Below, in pieces: positions 1-20,602 of a stretch of DNA of 28,075 nucleotides. The stretch is from a virus (Duplodnaviria > Heunggongvirae > Uroviricota > Caudoviricetes): IMG/VR virus record IMGVR_UViG_2744054962_000004; one strand, written 5' to 3'. The stretch's first letter is position 1, and each line of letters opens with the position of its first letter. The notes under the pieces were generated by a model. It was not told where the DNA came from. It saw nothing but the letters and a program-made list of their open reading frames with translations, and searched no databases. The position numbers and the translations under genes were made by a program.

Positions 1-1254
1 ATGCTGGAACAAATGGGCATTGCCGCGAAGCAAGCCTCTTATAAATTAGCGCAACTCTCCAGCCGCGAAAAAAATCGCGTGCTGGAAAAAATCGCCGATG
101 AACTGGAAGCACAAAGCGAAATCATCCTCAACGCTAACGCCCAGGATGTTGCTGACGCGCGTGCCAATGGCCTTAGCGAAGCGATGCTTGACCGTCTGGC
201 ACTGACGCCCGCACGGCTGAAAGGCATTGCCGACGATGTGCGCCAGGTGTGCAATCTCGCCGATCCGGTGGGGCGGGTAATCGATGGCGGCGTACTGGAC
301 AGTGGCCTGCGTCTGGAGCGTCGTCGCGTACCGCTGGGGGTTATTGGCGTGATTTATGAAGCGCGCCCGAACGTGACGGTTGATGTCGCTTCGCTGTGCC
401 TGAAAACAGGTAACGCAGTGATCCTGCGCGGCGGCAAAGAAACGTGTCGCACTAACGCGGCAACGGTGGCAGTGATTCAGGACGCCCTGAAATCCTGTGG
501 CTTACCGGCGGGTGCCGTGCAGGCGATTGATAATCCTGACCGTGCGCTGGTCAGTGAAATGCTGCGTATGGATAAATACATCGACATGCTGATCCCGCGC
601 GGCGGGGCTGGTTTGCATAAACTGTGCCGCGAACAGTCGACAATCCCGGTGATCACTGGTGGTATAGGCGTATGCCATATTTACGTTGATGAAAGCGCAG
701 AGATCGCTGAAGCATTAAAAGTGATCGTCAACGCGAAAACTCAGCGACCGAGCACATGTAATACGGTAGAAACCTTGCTGGTAAATAAAAACATCGCCGA
801 TAGCTTCCTGCCCGCATTAAGCAAGCAAATGGCGGAAAGCGGCGTGACGTTACACGCAGATGCTGCTGCGCTGGCGCAGTTGCAGACAGGCCCCGCGAAG
901 GTGGTGGCGGTTAAAGCCGAAGAGTATGACGATGAGTTTCTGTCATTAGATTTGAACGTCAAAATCGTCAGCGATCTTGACGATGCCATCGCCCATATTC
1001 GTGAACACGGCACGCAACACTCCGATGCGATCCTGACCCGCGATATGCGCAACGCCCAGCGTTTTGTTAACGAAGTGGATTCGTCCGCTGTTTACGTTAA
1101 CGCCTCTACGCGTTTTACCGACGGCGGCCAGTTTGGTCTGGGAGCGGAAGTGGCGGTAAGCACACAAAAACTCCACGCGCGTGGCCCGATGGGCCTGGAA
1201 GCACTGACCACTTACAAGTGGATCGGCATCGGTGATTACACCATTCGTGCGTAA
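1..1254 (+). CDS. proA: gamma-glutamyl phosphate reductase (glutamate-5-semialdehyde dehydrogenase)
   Basis: 417-aa ORF, ATG at 1 to TAA at 1252-1254. Translation is recognisable along its whole length as enterobacterial ProA, including the ...[13 protein letters not shown]... active-site cysteine region. Codon usage matches a high-expression core gene. Confidence 0.96.
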
Positions 1255-1368: not shown

Positions 1369-1444
1369 GCCGATATAGCTCAGTTGGTAGAGCAGCGCAT
1401 TCGTAATGCGAAGGTCGTAGGTTCGACTCCTATTATCGGCACTC
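1369..1444 (+). tRNA. thrW: tRNA-Thr (anticodon CGU)
   Basis: 76-nt cloverleaf: GCCGATA acceptor stem, GCTCAGTTGGTAGAGC D-arm, anticodon loop TTCGTAA (anticodon CGT), GGTTCGACTCC T-arm, TATCGGC 3' acceptor strand. The last 3 nt read CTC instead of an encoded CCA (see findings). Confidence 0.92.
1409..1442 (+). repeat. left att core: 34-bp direct repeat within the 3' half of tRNA-Thr
   Basis: cgaaggtcgtaggttcgactcctattatcggcac is identical to 14987..15020; the copies diverge immediately outside. Confidence 0.85.
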
Positions 1445-2036
1445 ACACAACAAAATCCTTTAAAAACAATATCTTAATGCGATTATCGCTCTCAAGATAC
1501 AATCTTTTTTTAAGGGATTCTATGACCAACAGTTGCCGCTATGGTTAACAGTGGCTACTCAGGGATGTTAGCACGTAGCGGCCTGTAGTTGTAAAGCTCG
1601 AACAGGTACAAAGCGTGAACAGTCCCCACGAACCGCTATCAACTCGAAGCTGATGACGCTGCCAACGTCTCTAAATCCTCCCGAAACAGATTGATCATAC
1701 GCATTTAAGCCCGATGTGCGGCCTTGTGGCTGCGTAAACAGGTGAATAGTGGTAAACGTACCTGCACACGATATGCAGGCTCTGCCAGCGCTTCGCTCAC
1801 GCTCCTGACGGTACACGAGCACCCTGATAAGGTGTGATCCATCTGACAATCTGATGATGTCGCTACGCTCCGCTTGTTGCTTGTACCACTAACGGGGCTT
1901 TATGGCTTCTATTGACTTAAATTAGATAGTTGCAAGGAAATAAACTAAAGATAATTTAAGTGTTGAGCGGTTTACTCGTATTGCTTGAGGGCAGTATCAT
2001 TACAACATTAATGGGATTTTTAAGGGACTGATGTGA

Positions 2037-2672
2037 ATGGCTGAGTATTATCCAGCGGTGTTTGAAGCAGAGGCTTTTAACTGTCCTCACTGTGGTGTTT
2101 ATGCCCGACAATTCTGGCGTAGGATGTATGGCTCTTCAAATGCGCTCCCTTCAAGAGGATCTGAGTTCCGAATGTCATCGTGCGCTCATTGTGATGAAGA
2201 CGCTTTTTGGTATCAGGGCAACATGTTGATCCCTGCGACTGGCAATGTTGAACTCCCAAATCCAGATATGCCCGATGACTGTAAGTCCGACTACATGGAA
2301 GCCAGAAGCATCATTAATCTGTCTCCTAAAGGGGCCGCTGCACTACTTCGTCTATGCCTTCAGAAGTTAATGGTCCACTTAGGCGAACCGGGGAATAACA
2401 TTAACGCTGACATCCGGTCACTCGTTCAGAAAGGACTACCTGTACGTATCCAGCAGGCAGCAGACATCTGCCGTATTGTCGGCAATCAGGCGGTCCATCC
2501 CGGAGAAATTAGCCTTGATGATGACCCGCAGTTGGCACATGGTCTCTTTAAGCTGCTGAACATTATTGTCACTGAGCAGATTACCAGACCCAAAGAGGTT
2601 GAAGAGATGTTCAATAGTATGCCTGAAAGGGCGTTGAAGGGTATTGAAAACAGAGATAAACCTAAAACTTAA
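2037..2672 (+). CDS. zinc-ribbon / DUF4145-like protein (candidate defence-associated cargo)
   Basis: 211-aa ORF with ATG start. N-terminal CPHCG...CAHC pair (CxxC-x-CxxC zinc ribbon). C-terminal region ...[37 protein letters not shown]... resembles the R-x-GN-x-aaH signature I associate with DUF4145. First gene inside the island. Confidence 0.55.
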
Positions 2673-2676
2673 AATG

Positions 2677-2692
2677 AGGGGCTTAAGCCCCT
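2677..2692. terminator. perfect 16-bp palindrome between convergent genes (bidirectional terminator candidate)
   Basis: AGGGGCTTAAGCCCCT lies in the 25-bp gap between the stop at 2670-2672 (plus-strand gene) and the stop at 2698-2700 (minus-strand gene); flanked by A/T-rich sequence. Confidence 0.5.
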
Positions 2693-2697
2693 TTAGC

Positions 2698-3486
2698 TTA
2701 TTCAGAAAACCAAATTTCTGGCCTTCTAAACTCCTTATTCTCAATAAAAAACAGAATATCTTTCCAGACTTCTTCATTTTCTTCCCAGAATTTTTGTTTT
2801 TCATTCATTGTAAGGACTTTACTATCATCTATTAACTTCTTGAGAATAGCAGGGATATCTTTATAGGGTTTTTTCCAGAAGGCATTACGAAATTCTTCAA
2901 TTTCAGCACTTGCATCCCGAACGGGTGTTAGAAGTTCAAGCTGTTTTTCTGTATCGGTAATAGGTTTATTTCCAACCCACTGATGATAGATTTGGCTAGC
3001 TTCTTCATGATGACCCCGAAGAATTGTTATTATTGTCTTTGAGAGTAACGAGCACATGTCAAAAGTAGTAAAGTAAAACCAATCGTGTTTGATTGCGGTT
3101 AATTCATCTTTCTTAACCCCTATTTGTTCAAGTTCACTCGAAATTGAAGATACTAATTTATAAAGATCTTTGTTTGATGTTGCTGTATCTAGGCGTCCGG
3201 TTCTGGAGGCTAATGAAATAGCTACTTCAGAAATAGGTAAGGAAACTTTTCTTAAACTCTCTAAAACTTTTTCAGCATCGTTAATAGTATCTCTTAATTT
3301 TGCCTCCATGCCTAAGAGCTTTATTTCATGCCATTCAAATTGAGTAAGCACCATCAACCCGAAGCCTGTTACAATGACAACAGTCCCTTCAGTTGCTCCT
3401 ATTGTCAGAGTTACAATTACACCAGCGCCTATAAGTAGCAATGCAATGAAAAACAAAAAATTCTTTATCCATTTATTTTTTAGCAT
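2698..3486 (-). CDS. membrane protein with two N-terminal TM helices and a ~200-aa soluble domain, function unknown
   Basis: 262-aa ORF with ATG start. Residues ~10-30 (FLFFIALLLIGAGVIVTLTI) and ~36-50 (VVIVTGFGLMVLTQF) are strongly hydrophobic. Markedly AT-rich compared with the proA-like core, suggesting foreign origin. Confidence 0.6.
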   Translation of the reverse strand: MLKNKWIKNFLFFIALLLIGAGVIVTLTIGATEGTVVIVTGFGLMVLTQFEWHEIKLLGMEAKLRDTINDAEKVLESLRKVSLPISEVAISLASRTGRLDTATSNKDLYKLVSSISSELEQIGVKKDELTAIKHDWFYFTTFDMCSLLSKTIITILRGHHEEASQIYHQWVGNKPITDTEKQLELLTPVRDASAEIEEFRNAFWKKPYKDIPAILKKLIDDSKVLTMNEKQKFWEENEEVWKDILFFIENKEFRRPEIWFSE

Positions 3487-3539
3487 ATCACTGTCACCAT
3501 TACGATTAAATTTGATCCAATATGAAGTAAAGTAAGTAA

Positions 3540-3749
3540 CTATTTTTCGTTCTCTGATGCCTCAAACGTCTTGGAGTGAGGGCAGGACTGTGAGCGCGTC
3601 ACCAGCGTGAACAGATAAATGTTGCTTTCGTAAGTGCAAAGCCGTTTTCCGCCCTGTAACTCTTGTTCGTCGGGGTTGCTCATGGTGATTTTTCCTGCAT
3701 GAGCCGCCAGCGGCAGCAGTGCCACAACAAATAGTAAAATTTTCTTCAT
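3540..3749 (-). CDS. small secreted protein (signal peptide MKKILLFVVALLPLAAHA), function unknown
   Basis: The track ORF 3540..3755 begins at GTG; the in-frame ATG at 3749 gives MKKILLF... with a classic signal peptide and an AHA-G cleavage context. Mature part ~50 aa with two Cys. Confidence 0.45.
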   Translation of the reverse strand: MKKILLFVVALLPLAAHAGKITMSNPDEQELQGGKRLCTYESNIYLFTLVTRSQSCPHSKTFEASENEK

Positions 3750-4729
3750 TTCCACAACCTGCCCTGTAGGTGTCCCGGCTCTTTATCCTCCAAGTTTACA
3801 TTCTCCTGTTGAAAATATCCCCGGCTCTGTTGGTGATCTGCTAGACCGTCAGCCCAGACCCTCGGTGAAAAGCGCTTTTCTTCGCCAAATATCGCTACGT
3901 GATGCCTTCAGCGACACGCCTCACTGCAACAAGCAGTGCAGTTACACAATGCTGCTTTGGGCTGAGGCAAGGGAGATAACTTGATGTTTTGAAGTGCCTC
4001 TGTTCACTAATTGTACAGTCATTTAACATATTGTATCTTGCATGTACTTGACTGGAATGGTCAGGTATTGCTTTTCGGAGCGTTGATGCGAAGCGGGGTA
4101 CACAACAGCGATTTCACCAACAGAAGGAAAGCATTCAGGAGGATTCGAGGTGAGTTCTCTTGTTCAAGGATTTTGGATGAGTTTGCCTGGTCATCAGACA
4201 ATTTCAGGTTTCAGGCCTTTGAAGCTGCCAGCGTGTCAAACCTGCTGAAAGTACAATTTCCTATTTGCCAGCAGAAAAAGAGCTACTACGGCGACGTTAC
4301 CACAACGGGTTGAAGGTCTGCCATCACCTGGTGATATTCACCGAGCCAGGCCGCCACTGTTTCGTACCATTTCCCACAACAATGTAAACAGCCACATCAA
4401 TAGCCCAGCATACGCTCTCAGCGCTGCTCTACGGCGTTATCTCCACACAATCGTGAACTGACAACGCCATGATCCACGACTTCCCATAGCGCGATAGAGG
4501 AGCCTCCAGAGGGGGGTGGTTTTGGTTTTTTGTATGATGTTTTATTTTTTATGGAAAAATGGTTCAGATAGGTGGTTGTGTTTAGCCTCATATCCACCAA
4601 CATATTTAACGCACCCAGCACTGGCGCGGCTTCGTTGTGTAGATCACGACATAACAATCACTACATCCCACAGGCGAGCCAGTGACAACAGACAGGATTT
4701 TCTATCAATTAACAGGTATTAAAGCTCTA

Positions 4730-5101
4730 TTATTTCCCGCCGAAAATCCAACCGATGATGGCACCGATTACCGCAGAGCGGGTCTCACCTGCTGCTCCTT
4801 TGAGAATGTTAATAACTGCATCGCCTGCACCAGGTGCCTGCTGTTGAAGTAAATTCAAACCACGAGGTGTTAACTTGGCGGCGGTGTCCATGTCGGTTGA
4901 AGAGATTATCTCCGTGTAACCCATATCGCTGAGAGCCTGGAGTGTGTTGCACAGCAGGTCAATCTGAGTTCTGTCTCCTCTGGGCTTCCAGCCGAAGTCT
5001 GAAAAATCGAAAGATGAGTAAGCCGGATAGTCCGCAAACAGTTTCACCAGGATTCCAGTTGCCATCTCGTTAAAGCTGTCTTTGCCTTGGACGAATTCCA
5101 T
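4730..5101 (-). CDS. hypothetical protein with a C-terminal glycine-zipper hydrophobic tail
   Basis: 123-aa ORF with ATG start and a good SD (aaggaaa). C-terminus ...GETRSAVIGAIIGWIFGGK is a GxxxG-type amphipathic/TM-like tail. Transcribed divergently from the control region at 5102..5851. Confidence 0.5.
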   Translation of the reverse strand: MEFVQGKDSFNEMATGILVKLFADYPAYSSFDFSDFGWKPRGDRTQIDLLCNTLQALSDMGYTEIISSTDMDTAAKLTPRGLNLLQQQAPGAGDAVINILKGAAGETRSAVIGAIIGWIFGGK

Positions 5102-5129
5102 AATGTTTCCTTTTGTTCACTGATTGAAC

Positions 5130-5300
5130 GAGGTTACTCAGTTACGGCAGGAAGTACCAGTCAGAAGTCATCGGTAACGAATACATATGAAAAGAAGTTT
5201 TCATCGGTAATGGTTACAGATGGGTCATCAGTAACGGTTACGCACCAATAAGATCAATATATTAAGATCAAATAAAAACCATTAAGATCTTTAAAACCTT
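5130..5300. repeat. iteron/operator-like direct repeats in the divergent control region of island 1
   Basis: TCATC(G/A)GTAA(C/T)GG occurs at ~5168, ~5201 and ~5225, with a related GGTTAC motif nearby. A(A/T)TAAGATC occurs at ~5247, ~5261 and ~5281. Confidence 0.5.
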
Positions 5301-5684
5301 AAGGTCAAAGGCAGGGTGAACTGGTGTTCACTAGTTGGTGTTAAGGAGTGATGCTTCTGTATCGCTCTGCTCTGAATGGCTCTGCCACTTCAGATATGTG
5401 TGGAAGACAAGCCGCGAGGCGCGTCAGTCAAATGTGGATCGAGCACGGCGCAGAGGAGCTTTAAACGCGACGTAACTCCCCCCTTGGAGGGGCGGCGGTC
5501 CCCCCTCAATCTCGCAAGGCGATAACGGCCCTCTGATTCTGTGGCGATGCCATGAGGCACAGCGGTCCTGTAACGCTCCCTGTCGCGTTCAGAGCGTCTT
5601 TCTCCTGTTGCTGGTATTTGTACCGCTTCGCTTAGGGCGTTGAATCTTAAGCGTCTGAGAGCGTTTTGTGATAAAGGGATTGAC

Positions 5685-5800
5685 AAAGAAAAGGTATATG
5701 TATAAAGTTGCGGGGTATTGACATAAAACACTTCCATTTCTTTATTCTTTAAGTGAGAAATCGGTTGACAAAGAAACTAATTTATAATAAACTATATATT
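5685..5800 (+). promoter_or_regulatory. promoter region for the 5852.. operon with duplicated TTGACAAAGAAA boxes
   Basis: TTGACA at 5690-5695 and 5765-5770, both followed by AAGAAA, plus a third TTGACA at ~5720; A/T-rich -10 candidates follow each. Exact -10 and start site not resolved. Confidence 0.4.
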
Positions 5801-5851
5801 ATCAACTGAGATGATTTTATGAATAAACAATAACTTAAATAGGAGAGATGC

Positions 5852-6280
5852 ATGGGGAAACCTGTTCTGTTCGATTTCTCGAACGCCACTGCCTCAGAGA
5901 TTGTCGCTGCAATCGATGCAAAAATTACCACAGCTCAAAATCTGCACGCCTTCCGCACTCGTATGGGCGGTGCCAAGAAGGCCGATAAGCTCTATCCAGC
6001 TACTCGCGAAGCACTGAACATCATTAAACGCCTGCGTCAGCAAGCGAAAGACGCAAAAATCATCCGGGATATTCTTAAACCATACTCAGCAGAGTTGGCA
6101 AAAGGCCGTGATGTTATGGAAATCATTGAACCAGTACTCTCTGCCTGGCGTGTCTATTACGCTTCTCATGGCATCGGCTTGATGAATGAACAGATCCTTC
6201 TGCTTAAGATGATTGAGTCTGGCGGTGAACTCGAAGGCATTACCGGAAAACCCATTCCAGAACTGACCACAACCGAATAA
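5852..6280 (+). CDS. hypothetical protein, first gene of the island 1 rightward operon
   Basis: 142-aa ORF with ATG start and SD AGGAGA 5 nt upstream; no recognisable motif. Confidence 0.55.
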   Translation: MGKPVLFDFSNATASEIVAAIDAKITTAQNLHAFRTRMGGAKKADKLYPATREALNIIKRLRQQAKDAKIIRDILKPYSAELAKGRDVMEIIEPVLSAWRVYYASHGIGLMNEQILLLKMIESGGELEGITGKPIPELTTTE

Positions 6281-6409
6281 CCATTCTCTGCTTTACACCG
6301 TTGGCAGCAACGCCACCAAACGAAATCGCCGCAAACACGGCTTCTTACTCCTGATCGCCATCCGCGATAGCAGGAGCGATAACTATTATGCATTCGGGGG
6401 GAACTTGAT

Positions 6410-6601
6410 ATGAATTTGAAGATTCAACAGCACGTATACGCCGGACTTTTAGAAGAAGCGAAGCGCCGGGGAACAACTGTTCCAAACCTTGCACGCGAAG
6501 TGCTAGAAATCGCCGCCCATCTTTTTGATAACGGTGAACCTTTACCCGCCTTGGGGAATATTAATGGAGATAATAATGAACAAAAGAGCGTCGCAAAATA
6601 A
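6410..6601 (+). CDS. small hypothetical protein (63 aa), possibly DNA-binding
   Basis: ATG start, weak SD. Its 3' end overlaps the start of the next gene. Function not recognisable. Confidence 0.4.
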   Translation: MNLKIQQHVYAGLLEEAKRRGTTVPNLAREVLEIAAHLFDNGEPLPALGNINGDNNEQKSVAK

Positions 6602-7376
6602 ACCAGAACTATGGATTGAAGAAGATCGCCGCCTTTTCTATGCAGATGCAATCACAATTAAGTCCACTGGTGAATGTTTCAAAGTCGAGGATAAACTTGC
6701 AAAGATCCATACCTATATGGTGGATCAATACAACAGCTACCAGGCTGATGGTAAGAGTTTCTACGAAGATCAGCGCGATATCGCGACTAAATGTAAATGC
6801 ACACCAAAAACTCTTGGCAAGTGGCTGAAAGTTCTTCAAGCACTTGGTCTACTTATCATTGATGAGAGCCAGAAGAGCCACTCTTACACGGTGCGGTCAG
6901 TAGTCAGCCAGGAACACAACTTGATTTTCAGCTATCCGAAATTGTTGAACGGCAAGCCGTCATACGACCATGAAGAGACGCTTAAACGCCTTTATGCATC
7001 TCAGGGACGTAGGAACGTAAAAAATCATCAGCCAAAAACCGAAGAGAGCGGTAAGAGTGAGCAGAAACGTGATGTGGAATCTTTCATGGTGGGATCTGCC
7101 GCGCCTGCTGCTGGAAAACCAGACGGCATACCTGCTGTGGATATTCCTGTCGATGTTGATTTATCCGGTAGTGATGATCCATCACTGAGTGATTCAAATG
7201 GGAGAAATGTCGTTGAGTTCCCGCGAAATTGTAGACCCAAACCCAGTTTTAAATTTGTAGCCCCAGATGATGACGACCACGAGGAAATCCATCAGGAGCA
7301 GGAAACCTTTATTGAGCCAGATGTTTGCCACGAACCAACGCCGGAAGAAATTGACGCTGCGGTAGCTCTTATGTGA
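6576..7376 (+). CDS. putative replication initiator / winged-helix DNA-binding protein with acidic C-terminal tail
   Basis: The track ORF begins at TTG 6525; the in-frame ATG at 6576 has SD GGAGA 5 nt upstream. Segment ...FYEDQRDIATKCKCTPKTLGKWLKVLQALGLLIIDESQKSHSYTV... is a helix-turn-helix plus wing pattern. C-terminus is strongly acidic (DDDDHEEIHQEQE...). Island 2 has a protein of the same architecture at 19503..20072. Confidence 0.55.
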   Translation: MNKRASQNKPELWIEEDRRLFYADAITIKSTGECFKVEDKLAKIHTYMVDQYNSYQADGKSFYEDQRDIATKCKCTPKTLGKWLKVLQALGLLIIDESQKSHSYTVRSVVSQEHNLIFSYPKLLNGKPSYDHEETLKRLYASQGRRNVKNHQPKTEESGKSEQKRDVESFMVGSAAPAAGKPDGIPAVDIPVDVDLSGSDDPSLSDSNGRNVVEFPRNCRPKPSFKFVAPDDDDHEEIHQEQETFIEPDVCHEPTPEEIDAAVALM

Positions 7377-7388
7377 TGGAGGAATGAA

Positions 7389-7865
7389 TTGTGTGAACAC
7401 GTAAGCGGTGTACTGACCGCAGATGAAGAACAAAAGCTATCTCGCCTTTTCTCCGTCTTGGAGAATCCGACATATAAATCCCGGTCCAAACCATCCGACT
7501 TGGAAACACAACGTAAAGCCCGTTTGCTATTGAATCGTGGGTTTTCACTGCAAATTGTCGCAAATACACTAGATCTTCCGTTTGCTGAAGTCTGGCGGCT
7601 CGCACGTCAAAAACAAGCGGTGACCTGGGCGATGATGACACCGACAGCCCGGACAGAATTTGTCCGTGAAATGTGGTCACATCGGATGCACCCGGAACAG
7701 ATCCGCAAGCGTTGCGATGGTCTGTCATACGTAAGCCTTCGATATTACCTGCATAACGCCGGGATCACTGACGCTGAAATGTTGGGTTACTACCCAGACG
7801 TGTTCGCGAATATCTGCAAGTTGCCGACAGTGAAGAAGAAGCGCACTAAGCGTAAATCCAAATAA
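7389..7865 (+). CDS. hypothetical protein with basic C-terminal tail (possible DNA-binding / small-terminase-like)
   Basis: 158-aa ORF starting at TTG 7389 with strong SD GGAGGA 5 nt upstream (no in-frame ATG near the 5' end). C-terminus KKKRTKRKSK. Confidence 0.45.
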   Translation: MCEHVSGVLTADEEQKLSRLFSVLENPTYKSRSKPSDLETQRKARLLLNRGFSLQIVANTLDLPFAEVWRLARQKQAVTWAMMTPTARTEFVREMWSHRMHPEQIRKRCDGLSYVSLRYYLHNAGITDAEMLGYYPDVFANICKLPTVKKKRTKRKSK

Positions 7866-8030
7866 TCCCACATCGGGAGCCAATGAACTTTGAAGCAATC
7901 TTTTCTTACCTGCCCGTTGTCTGGCTGGCGTATCGCTGCGTCTATGATGGGCTGATCCTCTTGCTGCGAAGCAGTGACGTTGCCCGTCATCGCCTTGCGA
8001 CAAATATCCTACTTTGGAGACTCCATAAAA

Positions 8031-8363
8031 ATGAAAAACGTAAACGACATCCGCGCCGATATTCTCGCCGCAATGCAGGCCGCTGCCGAACCGGAGAGCG
8101 GAGATCTGAATAAAAGCGCCGAGCAGGTGTTGGCTGATGCCATCGAGGGATATCTGACCGCTTCGACTGCAACAGCCAGCAAATCAGCCCCGAAAGCAAA
8201 GACCATAAAGGAAAAAGGGATCGCTCTGTGCCACCAGGCCCAAGGTTATAGCGCTAATCTGCGTCCGGTAAGTCTCATGATGAAGGCAAGTCTTGATGAG
8301 CTAACACCTGAACAACGCGCCGCGCTTGAGCGTCTGGGTTACGATATCAATCAGGGGGTGTGA
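8031..8363 (+). CDS. hypothetical protein (110 aa)
   Basis: In-frame ATG at 8031 inside the GTG-initiated track ORF 7974..8363. Stop TGA 8361-8363 overlaps the start of the next gene (TGATG), suggesting translational coupling. Confidence 0.45.
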   Translation: MKNVNDIRADILAAMQAAAEPESGDLNKSAEQVLADAIEGYLTASTATASKSAPKAKTIKEKGIALCHQAQGYSANLRPVSLMMKASLDELTPEQRAALERLGYDINQGV

Positions 8364-10510
8364 TGTCTGGTAATATTATAGTTAGCACCCTAACAAACCG
8401 AGTGGTCTGGGATGTCGATCAGACAAGTTACGGCAAAGCCTTAAAGGCTGTTAAATCCATCAAAGCTGCTCACGAGAAGCCCGCTAAAGCGCTGGAGAAG
8501 GCCCAGAAGAGGACCGCTCAGATGGAAGGCAAGGCTTCACTAGCATCGGCTAAGGCTCAGACAGCGAAGCTCCGCCAGGCTGAACAATTGTCAAAACAGC
8601 AACAGAAACAAGCTCAGATACAAGCCAAAATGGAGCGGGACGCAATCGCCCACGCCAATAAAATGACCTCATTACAGGCTCGCCAGTTATCTCAGCAGGA
8701 GCAGGCAGCACGGCAGAATGCCCGTTTAGCAGCGATTTCTGCAAAAGTGCAGGCCGCAGCCAGATCACGAGCGATGACCTACAACCCAAACATGGGCGGT
8801 CAACATTACGATCCTGGTCTTGTTTCCCGCCAGACTGACGCAATGAACCGTGGTCACGGCGCTGTTGCTGCCGACATTGCAGCCACTAAAAGGGCTATGG
8901 CCTTAGAAGAAAAGCGCCAGCGTGAGAAAGAGGCCAGTCTTAAACGCCAGAGCACTGCATACGATACTCTGCGCCGTGCCAGTTTAACTATCAGTCATAT
9001 CGAAGGCGCTAGCCTGGCTGACAAGATGAAAGCTGTGCAGGCAATCAAAGAGGCTACCAAGGGATACTCCGAGCAGCGTTACACCATCGCAGAAATGCGC
9101 CATGAACTTGCTAAAGCGACTCTGGAAACCAGGCGGCAGGCACGTATTAACCGCCAGATTGTTAAAGATAAAGCGAAAGCCAAGCGAGCAGGGCGCATCA
9201 ATGCTCAACGTCTGACCAGTGAACGTAGCGAACGTGGTTATGGTGGCCTCGCTGCTACTGGTGTAATTGCAGGTGGTTCCCTGATTGGCTCAATGGGGGT
9301 TGCTCGTGTTGGTCAGACACTACAGGGCAGTGTTGAACGCAACCAACAGATGAAGGCTTTACAGTCTCAAGGCATCTCACGTCTTGAATATGAAGCTGTG
9401 CGCGATGTTGTCGCCAACAAAACCGGCTTTAATATTTCTCCAGACAAAGCCCTTGATTTTTCTGCTGACTATAACGACAAAGTGGGCCAGTTGACGGCTA
9501 ACGGAACATGGAAGACCAACAAAAACGGTCAATCAACGTTGTCCGGTGGTGGTGAACTTGGTGACCTTATCAACGCTATTGCAGGCAAATCCAACGTTGC
9601 CACGGCAAAGCGCGTTGTTAAAGAACTCCAGGGTATCGACTTTAATCTCTTCCTTGTGTACCTCAAGCAATTGCAGAAGACTTTTAAGTTCACGGATAAA
9701 GAAACAGCCGCTTTTGCAGAAGCGATCAACGACGCAAGCAAGATCCTTCCGGCATTTGCTGATGGTGGTGAAGCTGTTCAGAAACGTATGGATGACCTCG
9801 CCCGGAATGGTTACGCCCTGAGCGAAGCACAACAGGAACAGCTAAACCGCCTAAGCGCTCTCTCTGTTGAATATTCAAGGATCAACGATTCGTTGAGTGA
9901 TATTTTCAGCTCAGGTTTTGCTGATGGGTTGGGAGAGGTTGGCAAGAACACTTCCAGCTTTAGCAAAGGTATGGCTGGCCTCGTTCCTATTATGGATAGT
10001 TTGGGGAAGGCTGTAGGCCAGGTGACTGCTGATATGTTGTTATTTGCCGGACGGGTGGGCCAACGTGTTAACGAGGGTGCAACACTTCCGGATGCAGTCT
10101 ACAACACCGTTGTGGATGATTCCGCAAACGGTGCTGCCGATTGGATTAAGGAAAAGACCGGCTTTGATCCACGTAGCATCGGTCAGACGCTTAAGCAGAT
10201 TTACCCGTGGCTAGATAGTTCAGCACCAAGCAATATCGGCTCAGGCACAGCGTATAACGATCCAGCGCTAGCGTTGAATGTTCCAGGTCTAAACTATCAA
10301 ACACCCCAGCAACCAACGTTTACGGTTCCGACAATTGATAGCATAGTTCAGCGACAGCCGATTCCTGTTGCGGTCACTGGCGAAGCTGAGATTAAACTCT
10401 CACCGCTTGATATTAACGTGAATGACGGCGCTATTAACGGTTTGATTGATACAAAACTGAGGAGCTATGAGCAGGCACAGAACAACATGATCCTTGGTAT
10501 TGCTCAATGA
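8363..10510 (+). CDS. large coiled-coil protein with Gly-rich hydrophobic segment (tape-measure-like or scaffold-like phage structural protein)
   Basis: 715 aa from ATG 8363, SD AGGGGG. N-terminal ~300 aa are K/A/Q/R-rich heptad-like sequence. Central GGLAATGVIAGGSLIGSMGV hydrophobic Gly-zipper. N-terminus and architecture parallel the 613-aa protein of island 2 (24151..25992). No Walker A motif. Confidence 0.6.
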   Translation: MSGNIIVSTLTNRVVWDVDQTSYGKALKAVKSIKAAHEKPAKALEKAQKRTAQMEGKASLASAKAQTAKLRQAEQLSKQQQKQAQIQAKMERDAIAHANKMTSLQARQLSQQEQAARQNARLAAISAKVQAAARSRAMTYNPNMGGQHYDPGLVSRQTDAMNRGHGAVAADIAATKRAMALEEKRQREKEASLKRQSTAYDTLRRASLTISHIEGASLADKMKAVQAIKEATKGYSEQRYTIAEMRHELAKATLETRRQARINRQIVKDKAKAKRAGRINAQRLTSERSERGYGGLAATGVIAGGSLIGSMGVARVGQTLQGSVERNQQMKALQSQGISRLEYEAVRDVVANKTGFNISPDKALDFSADYNDKVGQLTANGTWKTNKNGQSTLSGGGELGDLINAIAGKSNVATAKRVVKELQGIDFNLFLVYLKQLQKTFKFTDKETAAFAEAINDASKILPAFADGGEAVQKRMDDLARNGYALSEAQQEQLNRLSALSVEYSRINDSLSDIFSSGFADGLGEVGKNTSSFSKGMAGLVPIMDSLGKAVGQVTADMLLFAGRVGQRVNEGATLPDAVYNTVVDDSANGAADWIKEKTGFDPRSIGQTLKQIYPWLDSSAPSNIGSGTAYNDPALALNVPGLNYQTPQQPTFTVPTIDSIVQRQPIPVAVTGEAEIKLSPLDINVNDGAINGLIDTKLRSYEQAQNNMILGIAQ

Positions 10511-10940
10511 TGAAACAGAGGGTGGCGAATTCGTCGCCCCTATCTCAACACCGCAATGCGTATGTATCAAATTTAGCGACAAATCAAATACTTTTCGTGA
10601 AATTTATTGTAAATAATAATCATTCGTGTTAAAATAATATACAAGGTGAATTACAACAGCCAAATGTCATTCCCTTCTATAAAGCAGGCTCTGTGACACC
10701 GTGGAGCCTCTTTTGTGATGTGTCGCTTCCAGCCTCTCACTGGACGTTTGCCAACGGGCGGTACATCACAAAAGATTCGCCCTAGGGCGTACAAAGTCTG
10801 GGCCTCTGGTCTGGATTTGCCATTAAATCCGGCTCTCCTCCGGTCATCAGCCATGATGCAAACTGGCTCAGGTGTTCAGCGTTTGAGGCTCCTTACCTCT
10901 TGGATGGCGCTGATCACCTTCTCATTCCTACCAGTGAAAT

Positions 10941-10975
10941 TGACTCCGGACGACTCTCCGTCGGGTCACTTTTTT
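10941..10975 (+). terminator. candidate Rho-independent terminator inside the 570-bp intergenic gap
   Basis: tgactccggacgac / cgtcgggtca imperfect stem followed by cTTTTTT (10969-10975). Confidence 0.4.
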
Positions 10976-11078
10976 CATCGGAACAATTCGAAAGGCTGGC
11001 CCTGTTGCCGTTTACGGCTCAAGCAGGCGCTGGCCTTTTGTTTACATAGCTATGTGAAATTTAACGGGAGTTAATAAT

Positions 11079-11420
11079 ATGAAAATGGGAACAACTGAAC
11101 GTTCTTACAATGACGCGATCGCGTATGCAATCGATCCGAATTTTGACCGCAAGACTATTACCGTCGATCTGGCTGTAGAAGTCCAGCCGGGTAGTTGCAT
11201 TACCAGCGCTGGGGCTGCTTATGTCTCTGGTGATGACTGCCTGCTGGTTCTGAGCCACCACAGGGCCGAAGATGCTGCTCATATCATCGTTGCTGATCGC
11301 GGGATTTACATCAAACAAGACACCATCGTCGCTGTTATGGGCGCTACCGCTGGCGCTAATGCTATTGCCGCACTCACCAAAACGGGCGCAATCCGTACCA
11401 GCGCACCGGACGCAGAATAA
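11079..11420 (+). CDS. small phage-structural-like protein (head-decoration-like or tail-terminator-like)
   Basis: 113-aa ORF with ATG start, Ala/Gly-rich, directly upstream of the 344-aa protein. The same small/large pair recurs in island 2 (22334..22717 then 22732..23763). Assignment rests on size and order only. Confidence 0.45.
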   Translation: MKMGTTERSYNDAIAYAIDPNFDRKTITVDLAVEVQPGSCITSAGAAYVSGDDCLLVLSHHRAEDAAHIIVADRGIYIKQDTIVAVMGATAGANAIAALTKTGAIRTSAPDAE

Positions 11421-11438
11421 TAATAAGGAGAAGACAAC

Positions 11439-12473
11439 ATGGGACTATCAACCAATTTCAGCTACGCGGATTACACCAATACCTTTGTTAACATGGATGC
11501 AAAGAACACTTTGCTGTCCACGCTTAATGTTTTCAATGATCGACAGACTTCGGCTAGTCCAAAGGTCAGCCTTGATATCATTGATGAAGTAGCCCAGAAG
11601 GTGGCAAGCTCTGTTAATCGTTACGGCTCTGAGTGGTCCAGCATTCCTAAGCGTAGCTCTAGCAATCACCTTATCGAAGCTCCGCTTTATGCTTATCAGG
11701 ACCGTATTACAGCGGCAGACGTGCAACCATACCGCAAACCAGGTTCCGACCTGCAAATGTCTGTAATGGATGCGGTCACTTCTTCTGCTGTCGCAATGCA
11801 CGATAAGTACATGCGTACCCGTGAGCGGATTTTTGCTGATGCGCTTTTTCGTAATACCGTCGAAGCGACCTACACCCAGCAGCCAATCATTTCCTGGGAA
11901 GATGAATTTGGATACCAACAGGCAACCGGGACAATCAAAACCAGCGTTAGCTCTGGTGACCCACTTCGCAGCCTCGATGATGCAGTAACCGCTGCTAAAG
12001 TGCGCATGGGGGGCCTGGCTGGTCAGCTTGATGGATTTATCCTGTTTGCAGGTAGCAATGTTTATCGCGGCATTAAGTATCACCCTGATGTTCGTCAGAA
12101 TGTTCAGTTCGGTGTGCTTGATCGGGATGTTCTGTTTAATAAAGAAGTGCTTCCGGCATTCTCAACATTCATCATTGAAAATGTTCGAGTGGTGGAGGTC
12201 ACGGATCAGGCACTATACGGAATTGGTCCGGATGAATCCTTCCTGGTTCCACGCTTTAGCAAACCGCTGTCTTCGGATATTGCTCTGCCCTTCGGTTATG
12301 TGGCAACGGCTACCAGCCGCAATCTTGATCTGGCATTTGCTGATCCGGTTGATTTCCGTATCTGGAGCGTACAAGACAAGTTTAAGAACGTTGAGCTATT
12401 CGCGGAAAGCTCTATCTTGCCTGTTGTGTACCGCCCGGATTTCACTACACGACTGACGAACGACGCAGCGTAA
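11439..12473 (+). CDS. phage-structural-like protein, ~344 aa (major-capsid-E-like or major-tail-like)
   Basis: ATG start with SD AAGGAG 8 nt upstream. N-terminal region is similar to the island 2 343-aa protein (STNFSY...NTLLSTLNVFND vs STYFGV...NTLITNLDLFDV). Size and pairing with the upstream small gene mirror the lambda D/E arrangement, but fold not verified. Confidence 0.5.
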   Translation: MGLSTNFSYADYTNTFVNMDAKNTLLSTLNVFNDRQTSASPKVSLDIIDEVAQKVASSVNRYGSEWSSIPKRSSSNHLIEAPLYAYQDRITAADVQPYRKPGSDLQMSVMDAVTSSAVAMHDKYMRTRERIFADALFRNTVEATYTQQPIISWEDEFGYQQATGTIKTSVSSGDPLRSLDDAVTAAKVRMGGLAGQLDGFILFAGSNVYRGIKYHPDVRQNVQFGVLDRDVLFNKEVLPAFSTFIIENVRVVEVTDQALYGIGPDESFLVPRFSKPLSSDIALPFGYVATATSRNLDLAFADPVDFRIWSVQDKFKNVELFAESSILPVVYRPDFTTRLTNDAA

Positions 12474-12554
12474 GACAGCGGATTTTGGGGCTGACTATTT
12501 GGCCCCACCGTGAAGAATTGCCTGAAAAGGCGAGGCAAAGAAGAGGTGATTAGT

Positions 12555-12758
12555 ATGAAAATTCAATTTCAGACGAATAACGGTTTCCCGTTGCTGACTG
12601 TTGCAGACGAGCGCGTTTTAGATTTTCTGAACGTTAGCGCCGTGTGTCGGTTCCTGAAGGTTCCGCGCTCCTCGTTCATGATGAACGTTGAGCAATACGG
12701 GCTTGAAAAGGCAATCAGTGAAGCCCTGCTGAAGTTAAGAAAGAATAAAAATTGTTAA
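12555..12758 (+). CDS. small hypothetical protein (67 aa)
   Basis: In-frame ATG at 12555 with SD AAGAGG 8 nt upstream, inside the GTG-initiated track ORF 12510..12758. Confidence 0.4.
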   Translation: MKIQFQTNNGFPLLTVADERVLDFLNVSAVCRFLKVPRSSFMMNVEQYGLEKAISEALLKLRKNKNC

Positions 12759-12917
12759 TATTCAATATGTTGTTGTTTGTTGTCAAAAGAATCATTGTGT
12801 TTGTTTTTCGCGCATTTACTTGACACCCTGATGTAGATTGCGTAACCTTCACATAAAACTATTGCCTGCGATGTGTTCAGGTATTGTCGGAAACCCATCT
12901 TTAACCGAGGAGGTAAA

Positions 12918-13076
12918 ATGGCTATCACAAGTAGTATGTTTGGTCGCACCATCCTGACTGGTAAGGATGCTGAACAAATGCTCAAGCAGATGAGCAACGC
13001 TAAGCCTAACGATAAGGCTAAGCGTTCTTTAGAAAATGCTCGTCAGCTCCGCCAAAAAATGGCAAAAAAAGCATAA
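12918..13076 (+). CDS. small protein (52 aa), possible ribbon-helix-helix regulator or antitoxin partner of the downstream GNAT gene
   Basis: ATG at 12918 with excellent SD GAGGAGG 4-5 nt upstream. Predicted short strand then helices (RTILTGKDAEQMLKQM...). Lies 30 bp upstream of the GNAT-like gene. Confidence 0.5.
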   Translation: MAITSSMFGRTILTGKDAEQMLKQMSNAKPNDKAKRSLENARQLRQKMAKKA

Positions 13077-13106
13077 TAAAAACTAAGGGCAGGTTGTTAA
13101 ACGAAA

Positions 13107-13685
13107 ATGGATGATGTGTTACAACCTGACCTTCAGATTCTTCCCCTAAATCATTTCCATAACCACAAACGTTTCAGCAGTGGTTCAGAAGAATTCCAAC
13201 CTCTTAAATCTTTTCTTCAGAAAGATGCTTTATTATTTCAAGATGGTTGTATAGCTCAAACTTATGTTGTTGTTGATGACAACATGCGGAAGGATAAAGA
13301 AGAGCCTCTCGAAACATTCCCTCATAAAGTATTAGGTTATATAACGCTGACTTGCAGCCAAGTTAACCTTAAAGAATATGACTTAGGGGACTGTGTTCGT
13401 GCAAATACGTATGAGTACTTACCTGCCGTCAAGATTGCCCGTTTAGCTGTGGATGCAAAGTGTCGGACTGGCGGGATCGGTTCAATGCTGTTCGAATACG
13501 CCTTATTAATGTCATTGGATGATATTCGCCCTATGGTTGGGTGCAGGTTCTTGATAACCGATGCTAAGAGAAGTGCCATGGATTTTTATTATAAAAAAGG
13601 GATGGAGCTTCTTGATACGCAAGAAAATCAAGAGGCTGACCACCCCATAATGTTCATCGATCTTTTCACATTACTTGAAAACTGA
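13107..13685 (+). CDS. GNAT-family acetyltransferase, candidate GNAT-type toxin (TacT/AtaT-like)
   Basis: 192-aa ORF. ...LPAVKIARLAVDAKCRTGGIGSMLFEYAL... matches the GNAT acetyl-CoA-binding motif A (R-x-x-G-x-G after a beta strand). Preceded by a small ORF in toxin-antitoxin-like order. 3' end overlaps the integrase 3' end by 20 bp (convergent). Confidence 0.6.
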   Translation: MDDVLQPDLQILPLNHFHNHKRFSSGSEEFQPLKSFLQKDALLFQDGCIAQTYVVVDDNMRKDKEEPLETFPHKVLGYITLTCSQVNLKEYDLGDCVRANTYEYLPAVKIARLAVDAKCRTGGIGSMLFEYALLMSLDDIRPMVGCRFLITDAKRSAMDFYYKKGMELLDTQENQEADHPIMFIDLFTLLEN

Positions 13686-14871
13686 TCATCTCCACATACC
13701 CCGATAGCTCCCTCATCCCCGCGCCAGCGCTGTACGTTCTGAAACTCTCCGTTTTGCCTCGCTCATGGCCCACGATTAGGGCGATCCTGTCTTCTGGTAC
13801 ACCATGCCGATCAAGCTGGCTGATAAACATTCCTCGCAGACTATGAAACACCTTCCGCTCCGTGCCTTTCTCACCCAACGCTTTACGTTTAGCCCGTGTA
13901 AATCGCTGTGTATGCCACGTTGAGCGCTTGCCGTCTGCACGTTCGGTGATGCTGGCATGGTAGAACAGAAAGCCGTTGTGGTTGTTCTGGATGAGGTTTT
14001 TAATCAGTTTCGTCAATCGGCTATGAATTGGAACCAGGCGAGCCGCATTGCGTGTCTTACCCTCCGTCACATCGAAACACCATACCCCCTCAACGGTTTT
14101 GATATTGCTGATTTGCAGAGAGCAGATTTCGTTAAGGCGCATACCGCTATACATTCCCACTATCGCAACGGCTTTCATCTCTTCATCAAGCATCGCATAC
14201 ACCTTAGCCAGTTCGTCACCGCTAAAGGGTTCGTAGCTTTCTCGATCATGGCGCACGTCCAGTTTGTGGCCCGTGAATACATTGGCTTTCGGTGCGTCGT
14301 GATAGCGGTTTTGGGCTTGTGCCACTAGTTGGGACAGACAGCCAAGATAATTCGCCAGTGTCTGGCTGGCTTTCTCCTGCTTGGCGCTGTCTAACCAATC
14401 GGTGACCATAGTCCTGTTGATTTCCTGCAACTGGAAATCCTTACGCCGGAAATGAGCCGTGAAGACCTCCACCGCCTTAATGTACTTGCTCAGGGTAGAC
14501 AGCTTGCGCCTGTCACTGTGTTGGACAATAAATTCATCCCGCAGTTGAACAAGGGAGGGACACACACGAGCCGTGGCGAAGTCTATCCCATTATTTTGGC
14601 TTACATGCTGGTTGATAGAGCGCAGTTCCACCAGGACGCGATCGACACTGTTACGTTGGGGTTTTGGCTTGAGTCGGTCTCTGATAGCAAAAAATTCGTG
14701 CATGACTTTGTCACGAATGATTCGGGCTTCCCTGATATCTGCCGTGCCAGTTGTACGCATGAATGCTGTTCGATTCCCAAAAAGGGAACGCATATAAGGC
14801 GGAATAGTGACCTTGACGGAGTACACCGAAGAGTTTTCTTTAACAAGGTACGCATTAGGCTTGTATTTCAT
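13666..14871 (-). CDS. tyrosine recombinase / phage integrase (island 1)
   Basis: 401-aa ORF with ATG start. Box I region ...GMRLNEI..., then ...KVFHSLR..., ...GHERGKTESFRTY... consistent with the R...HxxR...Y catalytic signature. Sits next to the att repeat and shares a 49-aa identical block with the island 2 integrase. Confidence 0.9.
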   Translation of the reverse strand: MKYKPNAYLVKENSSVYSVKVTIPPYMRSLFGNRTAFMRTTGTADIREARIIRDKVMHEFFAIRDRLKPKPQRNSVDRVLVELRSINQHVSQNNGIDFATARVCPSLVQLRDEFIVQHSDRRKLSTLSKYIKAVEVFTAHFRRKDFQLQEINRTMVTDWLDSAKQEKASQTLANYLGCLSQLVAQAQNRYHDAPKANVFTGHKLDVRHDRESYEPFSGDELAKVYAMLDEEMKAVAIVGMYSGMRLNEICSLQISNIKTVEGVWCFDVTEGKTRNAARLVPIHSRLTKLIKNLIQNNHNGFLFYHASITERADGKRSTWHTQRFTRAKRKALGEKGTERKVFHSLRGMFISQLDRHGVPEDRIALIVGHERGKTESFRTYSAGAGMRELSGYVEMISFQVM

Positions 14872-14986
14872 CTTTCCCCCGATCTAATATTCAGGGGCAA
14901 CTGTGATCAGTTGTGTCAGTTTTGCCTTTCAGGAGCAGCGCATACGGTTCGAAGAATCAATGACTTGTGAAACACGTCATTGGAAT

Positions 14987-15022
14987 CGAAGGTCGTAGGT
15001 TCGACTCCTATTATCGGCACCA
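14987..15022 (+). repeat. junction att core: displaced 3' fragment of tRNA-Thr (with CCA) between island 1 and island 2
   Basis: cgaaggtcgtaggttcgactcctattatcggcacCA: identical to tRNA positions 41-74, followed by an intact CCA end; no 5' half present, so not a functional tRNA. Confidence 0.85.
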
Positions 15023-15628
15023 TCAAGAAAATCAATAACTTAGCTTAACTTCTCTAAGAAATTGTATCTTCTGTTATCACTTACAAACGCCTATACGTTG
15101 TTATGGGCTTTGGTAGTGTAACACGTATGGGCGAGTAGTTCCCAGGCTCAACCTCGTAACAAGTTCCTTTGAAGCTGGAAGACGTGCCACCGTCTCTAAA
15201 CCTTCTACCAAAACTCTTAGCAAGATGTTCCACACCTGGCGCGGTGTCCAATGATGCTACACGTCGTGAGACGTTGCAGAGGATAAACAGGCTAAATGAT
15301 GGGAAGAGTTTTAAGTGCAATAGTGGATCAAAGCCCACCTCTTCAAAACCTAACTTGATCGGGAAAGAATCAAGCTCTAGCACGGTTTCGTCCACCGGAG
15401 TACAACGGGTGCCTGATAAGAGAAGAACTGCTAAGACTTCATAGCTTTTGTGAAAAAGCCCTTTTTAGTGGATACGCCTACGGCGCTTATTTTTTGGTAT
15501 AACCATCAAAGGCGCTTTATGGCTCCTATTGTCTTGAAAATGTATCTTTACTTGTATTGTGTTTTATGCGTAGTCTCCCTGTGTAGTATGTAACTTGTTA
15601 ATTTTCATATGAATACAGAGGCAACACG

Positions 15629-15781
15629 ATGAAAAATATTGCAGCTATCAAACGTAATAACCGCAAGATTCACGCTCGTAAGTTCCTGTCTACGCCAGAA
15701 GGAAAAGCCTGGCTAGAGCGTAAACAGAGAGAGAACGAAGAAAGAAAACTCCTTAGTGAGTTGAAATGGCTTAAGGATTGA
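15629..15781 (+). CDS. small basic protein (50 aa), function unknown
   Basis: ATG 15629 with SD GAGG 7 nt upstream, stop TGA 15779-15781; absent from the ORF track because it is under 60 aa. MKNIAAIKRNNRKIHARKF... is highly basic. Confidence 0.4.
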   Translation: MKNIAAIKRNNRKIHARKFLSTPEGKAWLERKQRENEERKLLSELKWLKD

Positions 15782-15791
15782 ATCACCAGTA

Positions 15792-15833
15792 GGCGCATAA
15801 CACATCCAGCGATCAAAGATGTGTTTATGCGCC
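15792..15833. other. long near-perfect hairpin (15-bp stem) between convergent mini-ORFs
   Basis: GGCGCATAACACATC (15792-15806) pairs with GATGTGTTTATGCGCC (15818-15833) with one bulge and an 11-nt loop; no U-tract on either side. Confidence 0.5.
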
Positions 15834-15847
15834 TGATAGTGAAATTA

Positions 15848-16006
15848 TTAAAGTCGTTTAGTTAACATCGCCATTGCTTGAGCAATAATTGCAACAGCGT
15901 CCATCTCTTCACTGGAAGCGATGCAAATGCGGTAACTAATAGCCACAATGAATACATCAATAACGAGAAAGTGAATAGTGTGAAGATGTTTTGAAAGTAA
16001 ATGCAT
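15848..16006 (-). CDS. small hydrophobic protein (52 aa), function unknown
   Basis: ATG at 16006 with strong SD GGAGG and 5-nt spacer; my reverse-strand translation is MHLLSKHLHTIHFLVIDVFIVAISYRICIASSEEMDAVAIIAQAMAMLTKRL. In a different frame from the TTG-initiated track ORF 15862..16071. Confidence 0.4.
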   Translation of the reverse strand: MHLLSKHLHTIHFLVIDVFIVAISYRICIASSEEMDAVAIIAQAMAMLTKRL

Positions 16007-16400
16007 AACTTCCTCCGGTTTTGGGATAGGAGGATTAGAACATGCATTAAATGATGTTGCAAGAATGGCAATTTACCCTAATAGTCTACTATTCACCTCA
16101 ATCTACGTCAACCAATATTTGATGTAGATTTAATTTTCTTTTAAAAACAATATGTTGTTATTTGTTGAATTTTGGGGTTAGGTTGTTTTTTGAACGTTTT
16201 CATCAAGTGTAAAGATACGTTTAGCCTTCATAGTGAGTTCAGTTACTGTCTTTTTCTCTGAAATCGGCGCAAACGTGATCATCGCTTGAGGTTGCTGCTC
16301 TTACTTCTCAAATTGTGATGGAGAACGATAAAGGTTAGAGGGCACTTTTATTTTTTTAAGCAAGTGTATAGCATAAGAATAATCTAAAAAGGGAGGTTAT

Positions 16401-16952
16401 ATGCGCAGGTCTGCATTTGTGAGGATGATGATTTTTACAACGTTGTTTGTAGGGGGAACTTCTACCGCAGTTGCTAAAAACTGCAAAAAAGGAATACCTT
16501 GTGGTAACTCGTGTATAGCTGTTGGTAAGACGTGCCGGATTGGCTCTTATGCCCCTTCATCTTATAAAAATCATTCATACTCTTATCCTTCATCCTCTAT
16601 TCGAAGCTCGCAATCAAATAATTCACGAAAAACTGAAGGAGTGAAAACGACTCCTGCTGCCAAAAATTATCTTTGCCAATACTCTATTGCATCAATCGAA
16701 AACGGACGTTTAGGGGCATTACGTGTTCAGGGATACGCACAAGTAACTTTATATGCAGATAGCTTCAAGGCTAACAGATTAAATGGAACATATTTGATAT
16801 CGCCAAAACTGAATGCTAACGGCAAGTTTATGATGGCAGATGATAAAAGCAAGGTTTATGCTTATGATTCTTGGCTATTAAATTTTGCAATAAGCGATCG
16901 TATCACAAGAACGACAGAACAATGGGATCGATGTAAGCTCAATCAAAAATAA
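16401..16952 (+). CDS. secreted Cys-rich protein (signal peptide), function unknown
   Basis: 183-aa ORF with ATG start and SD GGGAGG. N-terminal signal peptide (MRRSAFVRMMIFTTLFVGGTSTAVA) followed by CKKGIPCGNSCIAVGKTC cysteine cluster and a Ser/Tyr-rich linker. AT-rich. Confidence 0.55.
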   Translation: MRRSAFVRMMIFTTLFVGGTSTAVAKNCKKGIPCGNSCIAVGKTCRIGSYAPSSYKNHSYSYPSSSIRSSQSNNSRKTEGVKTTPAAKNYLCQYSIASIENGRLGALRVQGYAQVTLYADSFKANRLNGTYLISPKLNANGKFMMADDKSKVYAYDSWLLNFAISDRITRTTEQWDRCKLNQK

Positions 16953-19259: not shown

Positions 19260-19278
19260 AGAAGAGAAGGAGAAAACT

Positions 19279-20587: not shown

Positions 20588-20602
20588 TAGAAAGACGGGC
20601 GT

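Follow-up and report, generated by a model that had tools for sequence, protein, structure and literature searches.

Islands that integrate into tRNA genes are well described, including those of the Islander type and, at thrW itself, CP4-6 and the P22/Sf6-like prophages, and the locus analyzed here resembles them in its integrase, its intact tDNA with a displaced 3' fragment, its tandem array and the supply of the 3' part of the gene by the element (PMC4383910). The att arms of CP4-6 and of the P22-like prophages copy thrW through the CCA, whereas those of the island 1 family described below copy it only through A73 or C74, so that restoration of the target is incomplete. Island 1 is a standard tRNA-targeting island with one departure, namely target restoration that stops short of the CCA, and it involves no new mechanism. 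In yielding a CCA-less precursor in E. coli, for which 3' trimming and CCA synthesis are expected before efficient cleavage by RNase P, the locus also resembles the CCA-less tRNAs of phage T4, which E. coli reportedly matures by RNase BN trimming, followed by CCA synthesis and then RNase P cleavage. The T4 tRNAs are phage-encoded, whereas thrW is a host chromosomal gene altered by an integrating element. Sporadic non-templating of the CCA, with post-transcriptional addition, is likewise found in Bacillus subtilis and many other bacteria that use the RNase Z pathway (PMC5143459; PMC5372718). However, CCA-less genes of the Bacillus type are stable and vertically inherited, whereas the thrW state is strain-variable, made by mobile DNA and reversible, in a species in which templating is otherwise universal. 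In E. coli K-12, every tRNA gene encodes its own CCA, and the CCA-adding enzyme Cca only repairs tRNA ends and is not needed for maturation (PMC5824355). A literature search, in which the older literature was incompletely covered, found no earlier description of an E. coli tRNA gene left without its CCA by an island. Within the array itself, island 2 shares with island 1 its target, a related integrase, a similar size and gene content, and an IHF-like box that is homologous between the arms; however, its arm carries CCA in E. coli and CTC in a Raoultella planticola relative, whereas the island 1 arm carries CTC.

The window, that is, the whole analyzed stretch of 28,075 nt (IMG/VR record IMGVR_UViG_2744054962_000004), is part of an Escherichia coli chromosome, and its first 3 kb match several complete RefSeq genomes at 100%. 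The chromosomal gene proA (1..1254, plus strand, a 417-aa ORF annotated as proA in the identical RefSeq genomes) lies upstream of thrW, which is followed by the satellite-like island 1 (approximately 13.5 kb, 1443..14986), a 36-nt thrW fragment comprising tRNA positions 41-76 where the two islands meet (14987..15022, plus strand), and the related, likewise satellite-like island 2 (15023..28075), which runs just past the window end. Island 1 is bounded by the direct repeat and is present or absent among strains; by Pfam/PHROG matches, its genes encode a DUF4145 protein, a DnaD/rep-like DUF6945 protein, a 716-aa coiled-coil protein, a lambda-E-like major capsid protein, a GNAT protein and an integrase. 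The latter, a tyrosine integrase of 401 aa (13666..14871, minus strand; PF00589, 7.5e-19; phrog_1, 3.4e-37; DUF6538 and SAM-like domains), adjoins attR; that of island 2 has 425 aa (26798..28075, minus strand; PF00589, 6.4e-17; DUF6538 and SAM-like domains). Island 1 thus has the Islander-type signature of an intact tDNA at one end and the cognate 3' fragment in direct orientation at the other, with a tyrosine-recombinase integrase inside and presence/absence polymorphism at thrW. Its att arm restores body positions 1-73 perfectly, but not the encoded CCA.

ARAGORN finds a single tRNA in the window, tRNA-Thr(CGT) at 1369-1442, and the Rfam tRNA model RF00005 matches 1369-1441 along its full length (model positions 1-71 of 71) with 71.8 bits, where the gathering score is 29. 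The body of the gene (positions 1-73, 1369..1441, plus strand) has a complete cloverleaf and the CGT anticodon and equals that of the reference; its cloverleaf is neither truncated nor disrupted, as that of a pseudogene or fragment would be. K-12 thrW has exactly the same bases 1-74 and goes on with C-A. The original prediction held that the full-length tRNA-Thr ends in CTC and the partial copy in CCA, and both readings are borne out. By direct reading, the discriminator A73 is base 1441 and positions 74-76 (1442..1444, plus strand) are C-T-C, which departs from the norm of C74-C75-A76 right after the discriminator, as found in K-12 and ATCC 8739. An exact direct repeat of 34 nt (1409-1442 = 14987-15020) places the attL copy of the identity block, tRNA positions 41-74, at 1409..1442 on the plus strand; a 22-mer from the 3' part of thrW matches only at 1420 and 14998, with 0 matches expected in shuffles. 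The second copy begins at tRNA position 41 and is therefore a fragment; it reads ...TATCGGCA-CCA, that is GGCA-CCA, with A73 and the CCA at 15019-15022 and the CCA itself at 15020-15022. Consistent with these readings, PGAP calls a 73-nt tRNA at thrW in carriers of the CTC junction and a 76-nt tRNA elsewhere. No canonical intrinsic terminator was found 3' of thrW, where the trailer is C-rich. Within this trailer, positions 1454-1519 fold into an extended, AU-rich hairpin (-17.4 kcal/mol; z = -5.96 relative to shuffled sequences), perhaps an element of the att arm or a weak terminator.

Among 5,426 complete E. coli genomes, 19 from different hosts and countries have the arrangement proA-thrW-island 1 with an identical CTC junction, and the recurrence of this junction in 19 independent complete genomes indicates that the CTC is not a sequencing artefact. 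The 20th carrier, strain H2, has a relative of the island with a flank 92% identical and the same GGCA-CTCACACAAC junction; this island is disrupted by IS3/IS1, and no integrase match was present in the 16 kb examined. The island-free strain ATCC 8739 (proA-thrW-paoD) reads CCA at thrW, as do K-12 with CP4-6 and CREC-544, in which island 2 alone directly follows thrW. Comparison with an island-free thrW had been proposed as a check; CTC in such a relative would have spoken against an origin from the island, and the island-free strain does not have it. In PK12, TL20 and PEC403, the match to the thrW-island 1 region starts only at tRNA position 31. Detailed examination of PK12 revealed a P22-like prophage between thrW and island 1, with the full thrW ending in CCA from the prophage arm, and with the left end of island 1 preceded by a tRNA fragment (positions 31-74) and then CTC; a diverged relative of island 1 in PCN061 shows a PK12-like arrangement. 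As the CTC stays with the left end of island 1 behind the P22-like prophage, it travels with the island and not with the chromosome. The thrW site is accordingly polymorphic: MRY15-117 has only island 1, CREC-544 only island 2, CUVET19-1704 the tandem of both, PK12 a P22-like prophage plus island 1, and ATCC 8739 none of these. The proposal that island 1 brought an att copy diverging from position 75 agrees with CTC being found at attL wherever island 1 adjoins thrW. The CCA-less arm originates from island 1 and is inherited with it, and the loss is undone once another element takes the thrW-proximal place. A TCA variant of thrW on an IMG/VR contig (L135) has no exact counterpart in E. coli, the best matches being 99% identical and consistent with CCA; the flank of this type is carried by ATCC 8739, which reads CCA, and is the common ancestral-type flank.

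The fragment at the junction of the two islands had been taken to keep the CCA displaced from the resident gene, and this view stands only in part. The CCA is present, and it is followed by TCAAGAAAATCAATAAC..., the same sequence that directly follows the full thrW in CREC-544, which indicates that the CCA of the fragment belongs to the att arm of island 2 and is not the ancestral chromosomal 3' end. The left end of island 2 is matched at 99% or more in about 200 genomes, directly beside a full tRNA-Thr among the matches listed, and the island 1-island 2 junction was found in 3 genomes only. The simplest history suggested by these sequences would be that island 2 integrated first and that island 1 then entered the rebuilt thrW. 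MRY15-117 carries only island 1; its attR has the sequence GGCACCATTTAAATCAATAAG, the arm that a P22-like prophage also supplies, with an integrase pseudogene behind it. The attR of island 2 lies approximately 150 nt beyond the window and shares with the tRNA only the 18-nt identity block CTCCTATTATCGGCACCA, positions 59-76. At the left-end junction of island 2, a 'tRNA-Ser' is annotated in NZ_AP027790.1 and NZ_CP112988.1 (H94 and H95), and a tRNA-Thr in other genomes; the tRNA-Ser may be a thrW fragment called wrongly or may mark another integration site.

Junctions in the opposite order were also observed. Two IMG/VR contigs (L008, 7492-7515; L010, 6254-6277) carry an island-2-type attR with 15-nt tRNA identity, TCCTATTATCGGCAC, fused to the CTC flank, which represents a tandem in the order opposite to that of the window and recombination at a CCA-less site. 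These fusions, together with the P22-like prophages that precede CTC sites, show that positions 74-76 are dispensable for recombination. A search of IMG/VR for the attP of excised island 1 found no such junction, and there was only one metagenome match, contig ULRE01011459.1 (L140, 6233-6675), in which an island-2-like element with an attR-type junction is followed by an island-1-type left-end remnant of about 440 nt (CTC) and by chromosomal genes. It was considered as a possible attP and rejected, since genes for HxlR, a ketoacyl synthase, DJ-1 and a transposase lie from approximately 1.8 kb to the right of the junction, which makes it a chromosomal tandem with a left-end remnant of island 1. 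This contig represents another CCA-less arm surviving as a scar.

Exact-pattern scans recovered relatives of the island 1 arm in both cellular and viral sequences. The family flank is present in 7 IMG/VR contigs, and across the family its first 300-550 nt share 80-93% identity with the window; one of the viral contigs (L006) encodes an integrase 93% identical to that of island 1. Raoultella terrigena reads CTC, Raoultella sp. BIGb0138 CTT, and further viral contigs CTC or ATC, so that every copy in the family is non-CCA, even beside a mere tRNA fragment; because one member reads ATC, the C74 retained in the window is probably incidental. In all members, the 20 nt starting at +15 after the discriminator resemble the P22-like arm (attL of PK12), 'CCA TTTAAATCAATAAGTTA', with 14-17 of 20 matches, a resemblance reached by 0-72 of 5,000 shuffles across the family. 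In the window this part (1457-1476) has 15/20 matches at offset +15, a score reached by 12/5000 shuffles, and in the relatives H2 and L072 it has 17/20 matches with the CCA intact, the trailer CCA being kept in strain H2 and in the Raoultella relative. Alignment and offset analysis thus divide the arm into a 15-nt segment, CTCACACAACAAAAT (1442..1456, plus strand), an apparent insertion that reaches from the discriminator to a relic CCA-like trailer, and the relic itself, 'CC(T)TTTAAAAACAATATCTTA' (1457..1476, plus strand), which is homologous to 'CCATTTAAATCAATAAGTTA' of the P22-like arm and holds an IHF-consensus-like box. With this relic at +15 throughout the family, the arm of island 1 looks like an ordinary CCA-bearing arm into which 15 nt were inserted between the discriminator and the CCA.

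The IHF consensus is WATCAANNNNTTR, and the conserved part of the arm matches it, which suggests a candidate IHF site. A box of this kind, AAATCAATAA(G/C)TTA, stands shortly after the tRNA end in island 1, island 2 and the P22-like elements, and CP4-6 has a looser version; examples are found at 1463-1476 and 15030-15043 of the window and at 8251-8264 (minus strand) of contig L133. The offset of the box from A73 differs, being +6 for P22-like arms, +10 for island 2 and +21 for island 1.

From these comparisons, we consider it likely that integration of island 1 rebuilds the thrW body without the CCA, that trimming and Cca complete the tail, and that the cost is probably small. Island 1 inserted site-specifically into the 3' part of thrW, with a crossover within tRNA positions 41-74 and, by comparison with the related integrase of island 2, probably within positions 60-74. 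The att arm of the island now provides the 3' end of the resident gene, the earlier 3' end having moved to the far side; as the arm copies the tRNA only through the discriminator (plus C74 here), the rebuilt gene has a complete tRNA body but lacks C75-A76. Excision is predicted to restore the CCA, with an attP of the form ...GGAATCGAAGG...GGCAC-TCACAC and an attB ending in CCA.

A functional tRNA must end in CCA, and trimming of the transcript (...A73-CUCACACAAC...) back to A73 or C74 would therefore have to precede its extension by the CCA-adding enzyme. This reliance of the carrier tRNA-Thr(CGU) on trimming and CCA addition, as the original prediction had it, would parallel the maturation of T4 tRNAs. 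E. coli RNase P is said to use C74/C75 of the precursor, and the 5' processing of carrier thrW may be slowed until the CCA has been added. Removal of the C-rich trailer would fall to RNase BN/Z cleavage and/or to exonucleases, presumably RNase PH rather than RNase T, and Cca would then build the tail, as it does in E. coli for T4 tRNAs. C residues slow RNase T (PMC5824355, PMC5291269), RNase PH takes C-rich trailers, and RNase BN/Z has both endo- and exonuclease activity (PMC5291269). DNA of cca was found at a coverage of at least 80% in all 5,426 genomes. A thrW knockout is viable, ACG also being read by tRNA-Thr4 with (m)cmo5U34, and a strong defect appears only once U34 hydroxylation is also removed (PMC6599085). 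Since tRNA-Thr4 reads the same codon, the host probably pays little, and the suggestion of a fitness cost of carrying the island is weakened, both by the dispensability of thrW (PMC6599085) and by the persistence of the CCA-less state at decayed islands. In those islands (E. coli H2 and Raoultella BIGb0138), the tRNA body is 100% intact, and the absence of an integrase from the sequence examined suggests that the CCA-less state is fixed there. The intact tRNA bodies could reflect a short elapsed time rather than selection.

The same observations can be read to mean that the CCA-less thrW is dead or strongly hypomorphic, its precursor being ill-processed or degraded, with ACG decoded by tRNA-Thr4 (UGU) and the island inactivating its target. 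The viability of the thrW knockout, with a phenotype only when U34 hydroxylation is lost as well (PMC6599085), fits this reading, as does the C-rich trailer expected to slow RNase T (PMC5824355, PMC5291269). Carriers are also rare, at 20 of 5,426 E. coli genomes. The reported contact of RNase P with the CCA would, moreover, be lost at C75. Nevertheless, no carrier, not even one with an old decayed island, has any change in the cloverleaf or in the 73 body positions, and across genera the identity of the arm is perfect through the discriminator, right after which the flank has diverged by 8-20%. With DNA of cca in every genome searched, and with E. coli reportedly able to mature CCA-less T4 tRNAs through RNase BN and Cca, we regard a dead gene as unlikely and prefer a gene that is rebuilt without its CCA and completed after transcription.

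A bolder view is that the CCA-less arm is a conserved trait that reversibly makes the sole host gene for tRNA-Thr(CGU) dependent on RNase BN/Z and Cca, by which ACG decoding or tRNA quality-control traffic would be modulated for the element or its helper. We judge this to be very unlikely; a weaker version, if true, would mean that recurrent CCA-less genes made by mobile elements help to explain why enterobacteria retain RNase BN/Z and full CCA-adding activity although their own genes already template the CCA. That the non-CCA arm is a trait of the satellite under selection, with a Cca/RNase BN-dependent or lowered tRNA-Thr(CGU) giving a gain against the host, a helper phage or competitors for thrW, seems to us extremely unlikely. 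The 15-nt segment and the non-CCA state are conserved in Escherichia, Raoultella and several viral contigs, and non-CCA arms occur in at least two other lineages (the CTC of the island-2-like element of R. planticola and the TCA of the CP4-6-like element of E. wuhouensis), which speaks for this view; yet positions 74-76 vary within the family (CTC, CTT, ATC), as a neutral flank would, the close relative island 2 carries CCA, and no phenotype is known. P22-like and island-2-type elements, moreover, still integrate at CCA-less sites, which argues against exclusion of competitors. CTC and CCA differ by two bases only, which by itself would allow a point mutation after integration, or an error of sequencing or assembly, to account for the junction, but the flank departs from those of the CCA type at many more bases than two, 19 junctions in complete genomes are identical, and the arm also recurs in diverged relatives and at copies away from a full tRNA. 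This explanation is negligible in our view, and incomplete restoration by the island 1 arm remains the reading that we favor.

In total, a full-length thrW without CCA was found in 20/5,426 complete E. coli genomes. In a species survey of 120 listed loci from one-genome-per-species contigs, CCA was encoded in 80 of the 84 full-length thrW copies listed (non-CCA in 4/84) and in all 33 partial copies. The premise that enterobacterial tRNA genes normally encode CCA therefore holds for thrW, in agreement with the statement made for K-12 (PMC5824355). The 4 non-CCA copies comprise two from Raoultella with an arm of the island 1 family, one from Raoultella planticola beside an island-2-like element (CTC) and one from Enterobacter wuhouensis beside a CP4-6-like element (TCA), and these flanks indicate that the templated CCA has been lost at thrW in at least three element lineages. 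In E. wuhouensis (L102), thrW lies at 6205-6277 on the minus strand, with TCA after the full gene and an adjoining CP4-6-like island that encodes DUF4942 and a retron-type reverse transcriptase; a P22-type integrase was considered as the source of this variant, but none was matched, and the element is CP4-6-like by its DUF4942 and reverse transcriptase.

The CCA-less thrW arises seldom but repeatedly as a side effect of island integration and is probably cheap, with a small expected phenotypic effect and modest interest as a curiosity. It is, however, a natural exception to the rule that all E. coli tRNA genes encode CCA (PMC5824355), in that a chromosomal host tRNA gene present in a single copy no longer templates the CCA as a result of island integration, and the loss persists after decay of the island. 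Carriers may serve as a natural in vivo substrate for studies of RNase BN/Z and of de novo CCA synthesis in E. coli, and the state provides a gauge of how weakly templating of the CCA is selected for when the tRNA is redundant. Caution is also advisable in island finding and tRNA annotation, which presume perfect restoration of the target.

Both islands, each approximately 13 kb, encode an integrase, a rep-like protein, a lambda-E-like major capsid protein and a long coiled-coil, 'tape-measure-like' protein, and Pfam/PHROG profile matches revealed neither a portal nor a terminase nor any known hijack gene in either. On this gene content they look like phage satellites. The two integrases are 46% identical overall. 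A patch of 49 aa (HNGFLFYHASITERADGKRSTWHTQRFTRAKRKALGEKGTERKVFHSLR; 13834-13980 and 27023-27169, minus strand) is 100% identical in both, and the corresponding 147 nt of DNA contain 28 differences, every one of them synonymous. This pattern indicates that one segment of the catalytic domain is under extreme purifying selection, and the patch may be where the integrases recognize the thrW core common to both. In island 2, about five iteron-like direct repeats of 23-25 nt (18073-18218) lie approximately 1.3 kb upstream of a replication-initiator-like ORF (19479-20072), and this array is probably the origin of replication of the island. In addition, a block of approximately 48 nt, 75% identical between the islands, is found at 1874-1921 and 15491-15538, some 470-510 nt inside their left ends, and its 15-nt core occurs again at 17656-17670.
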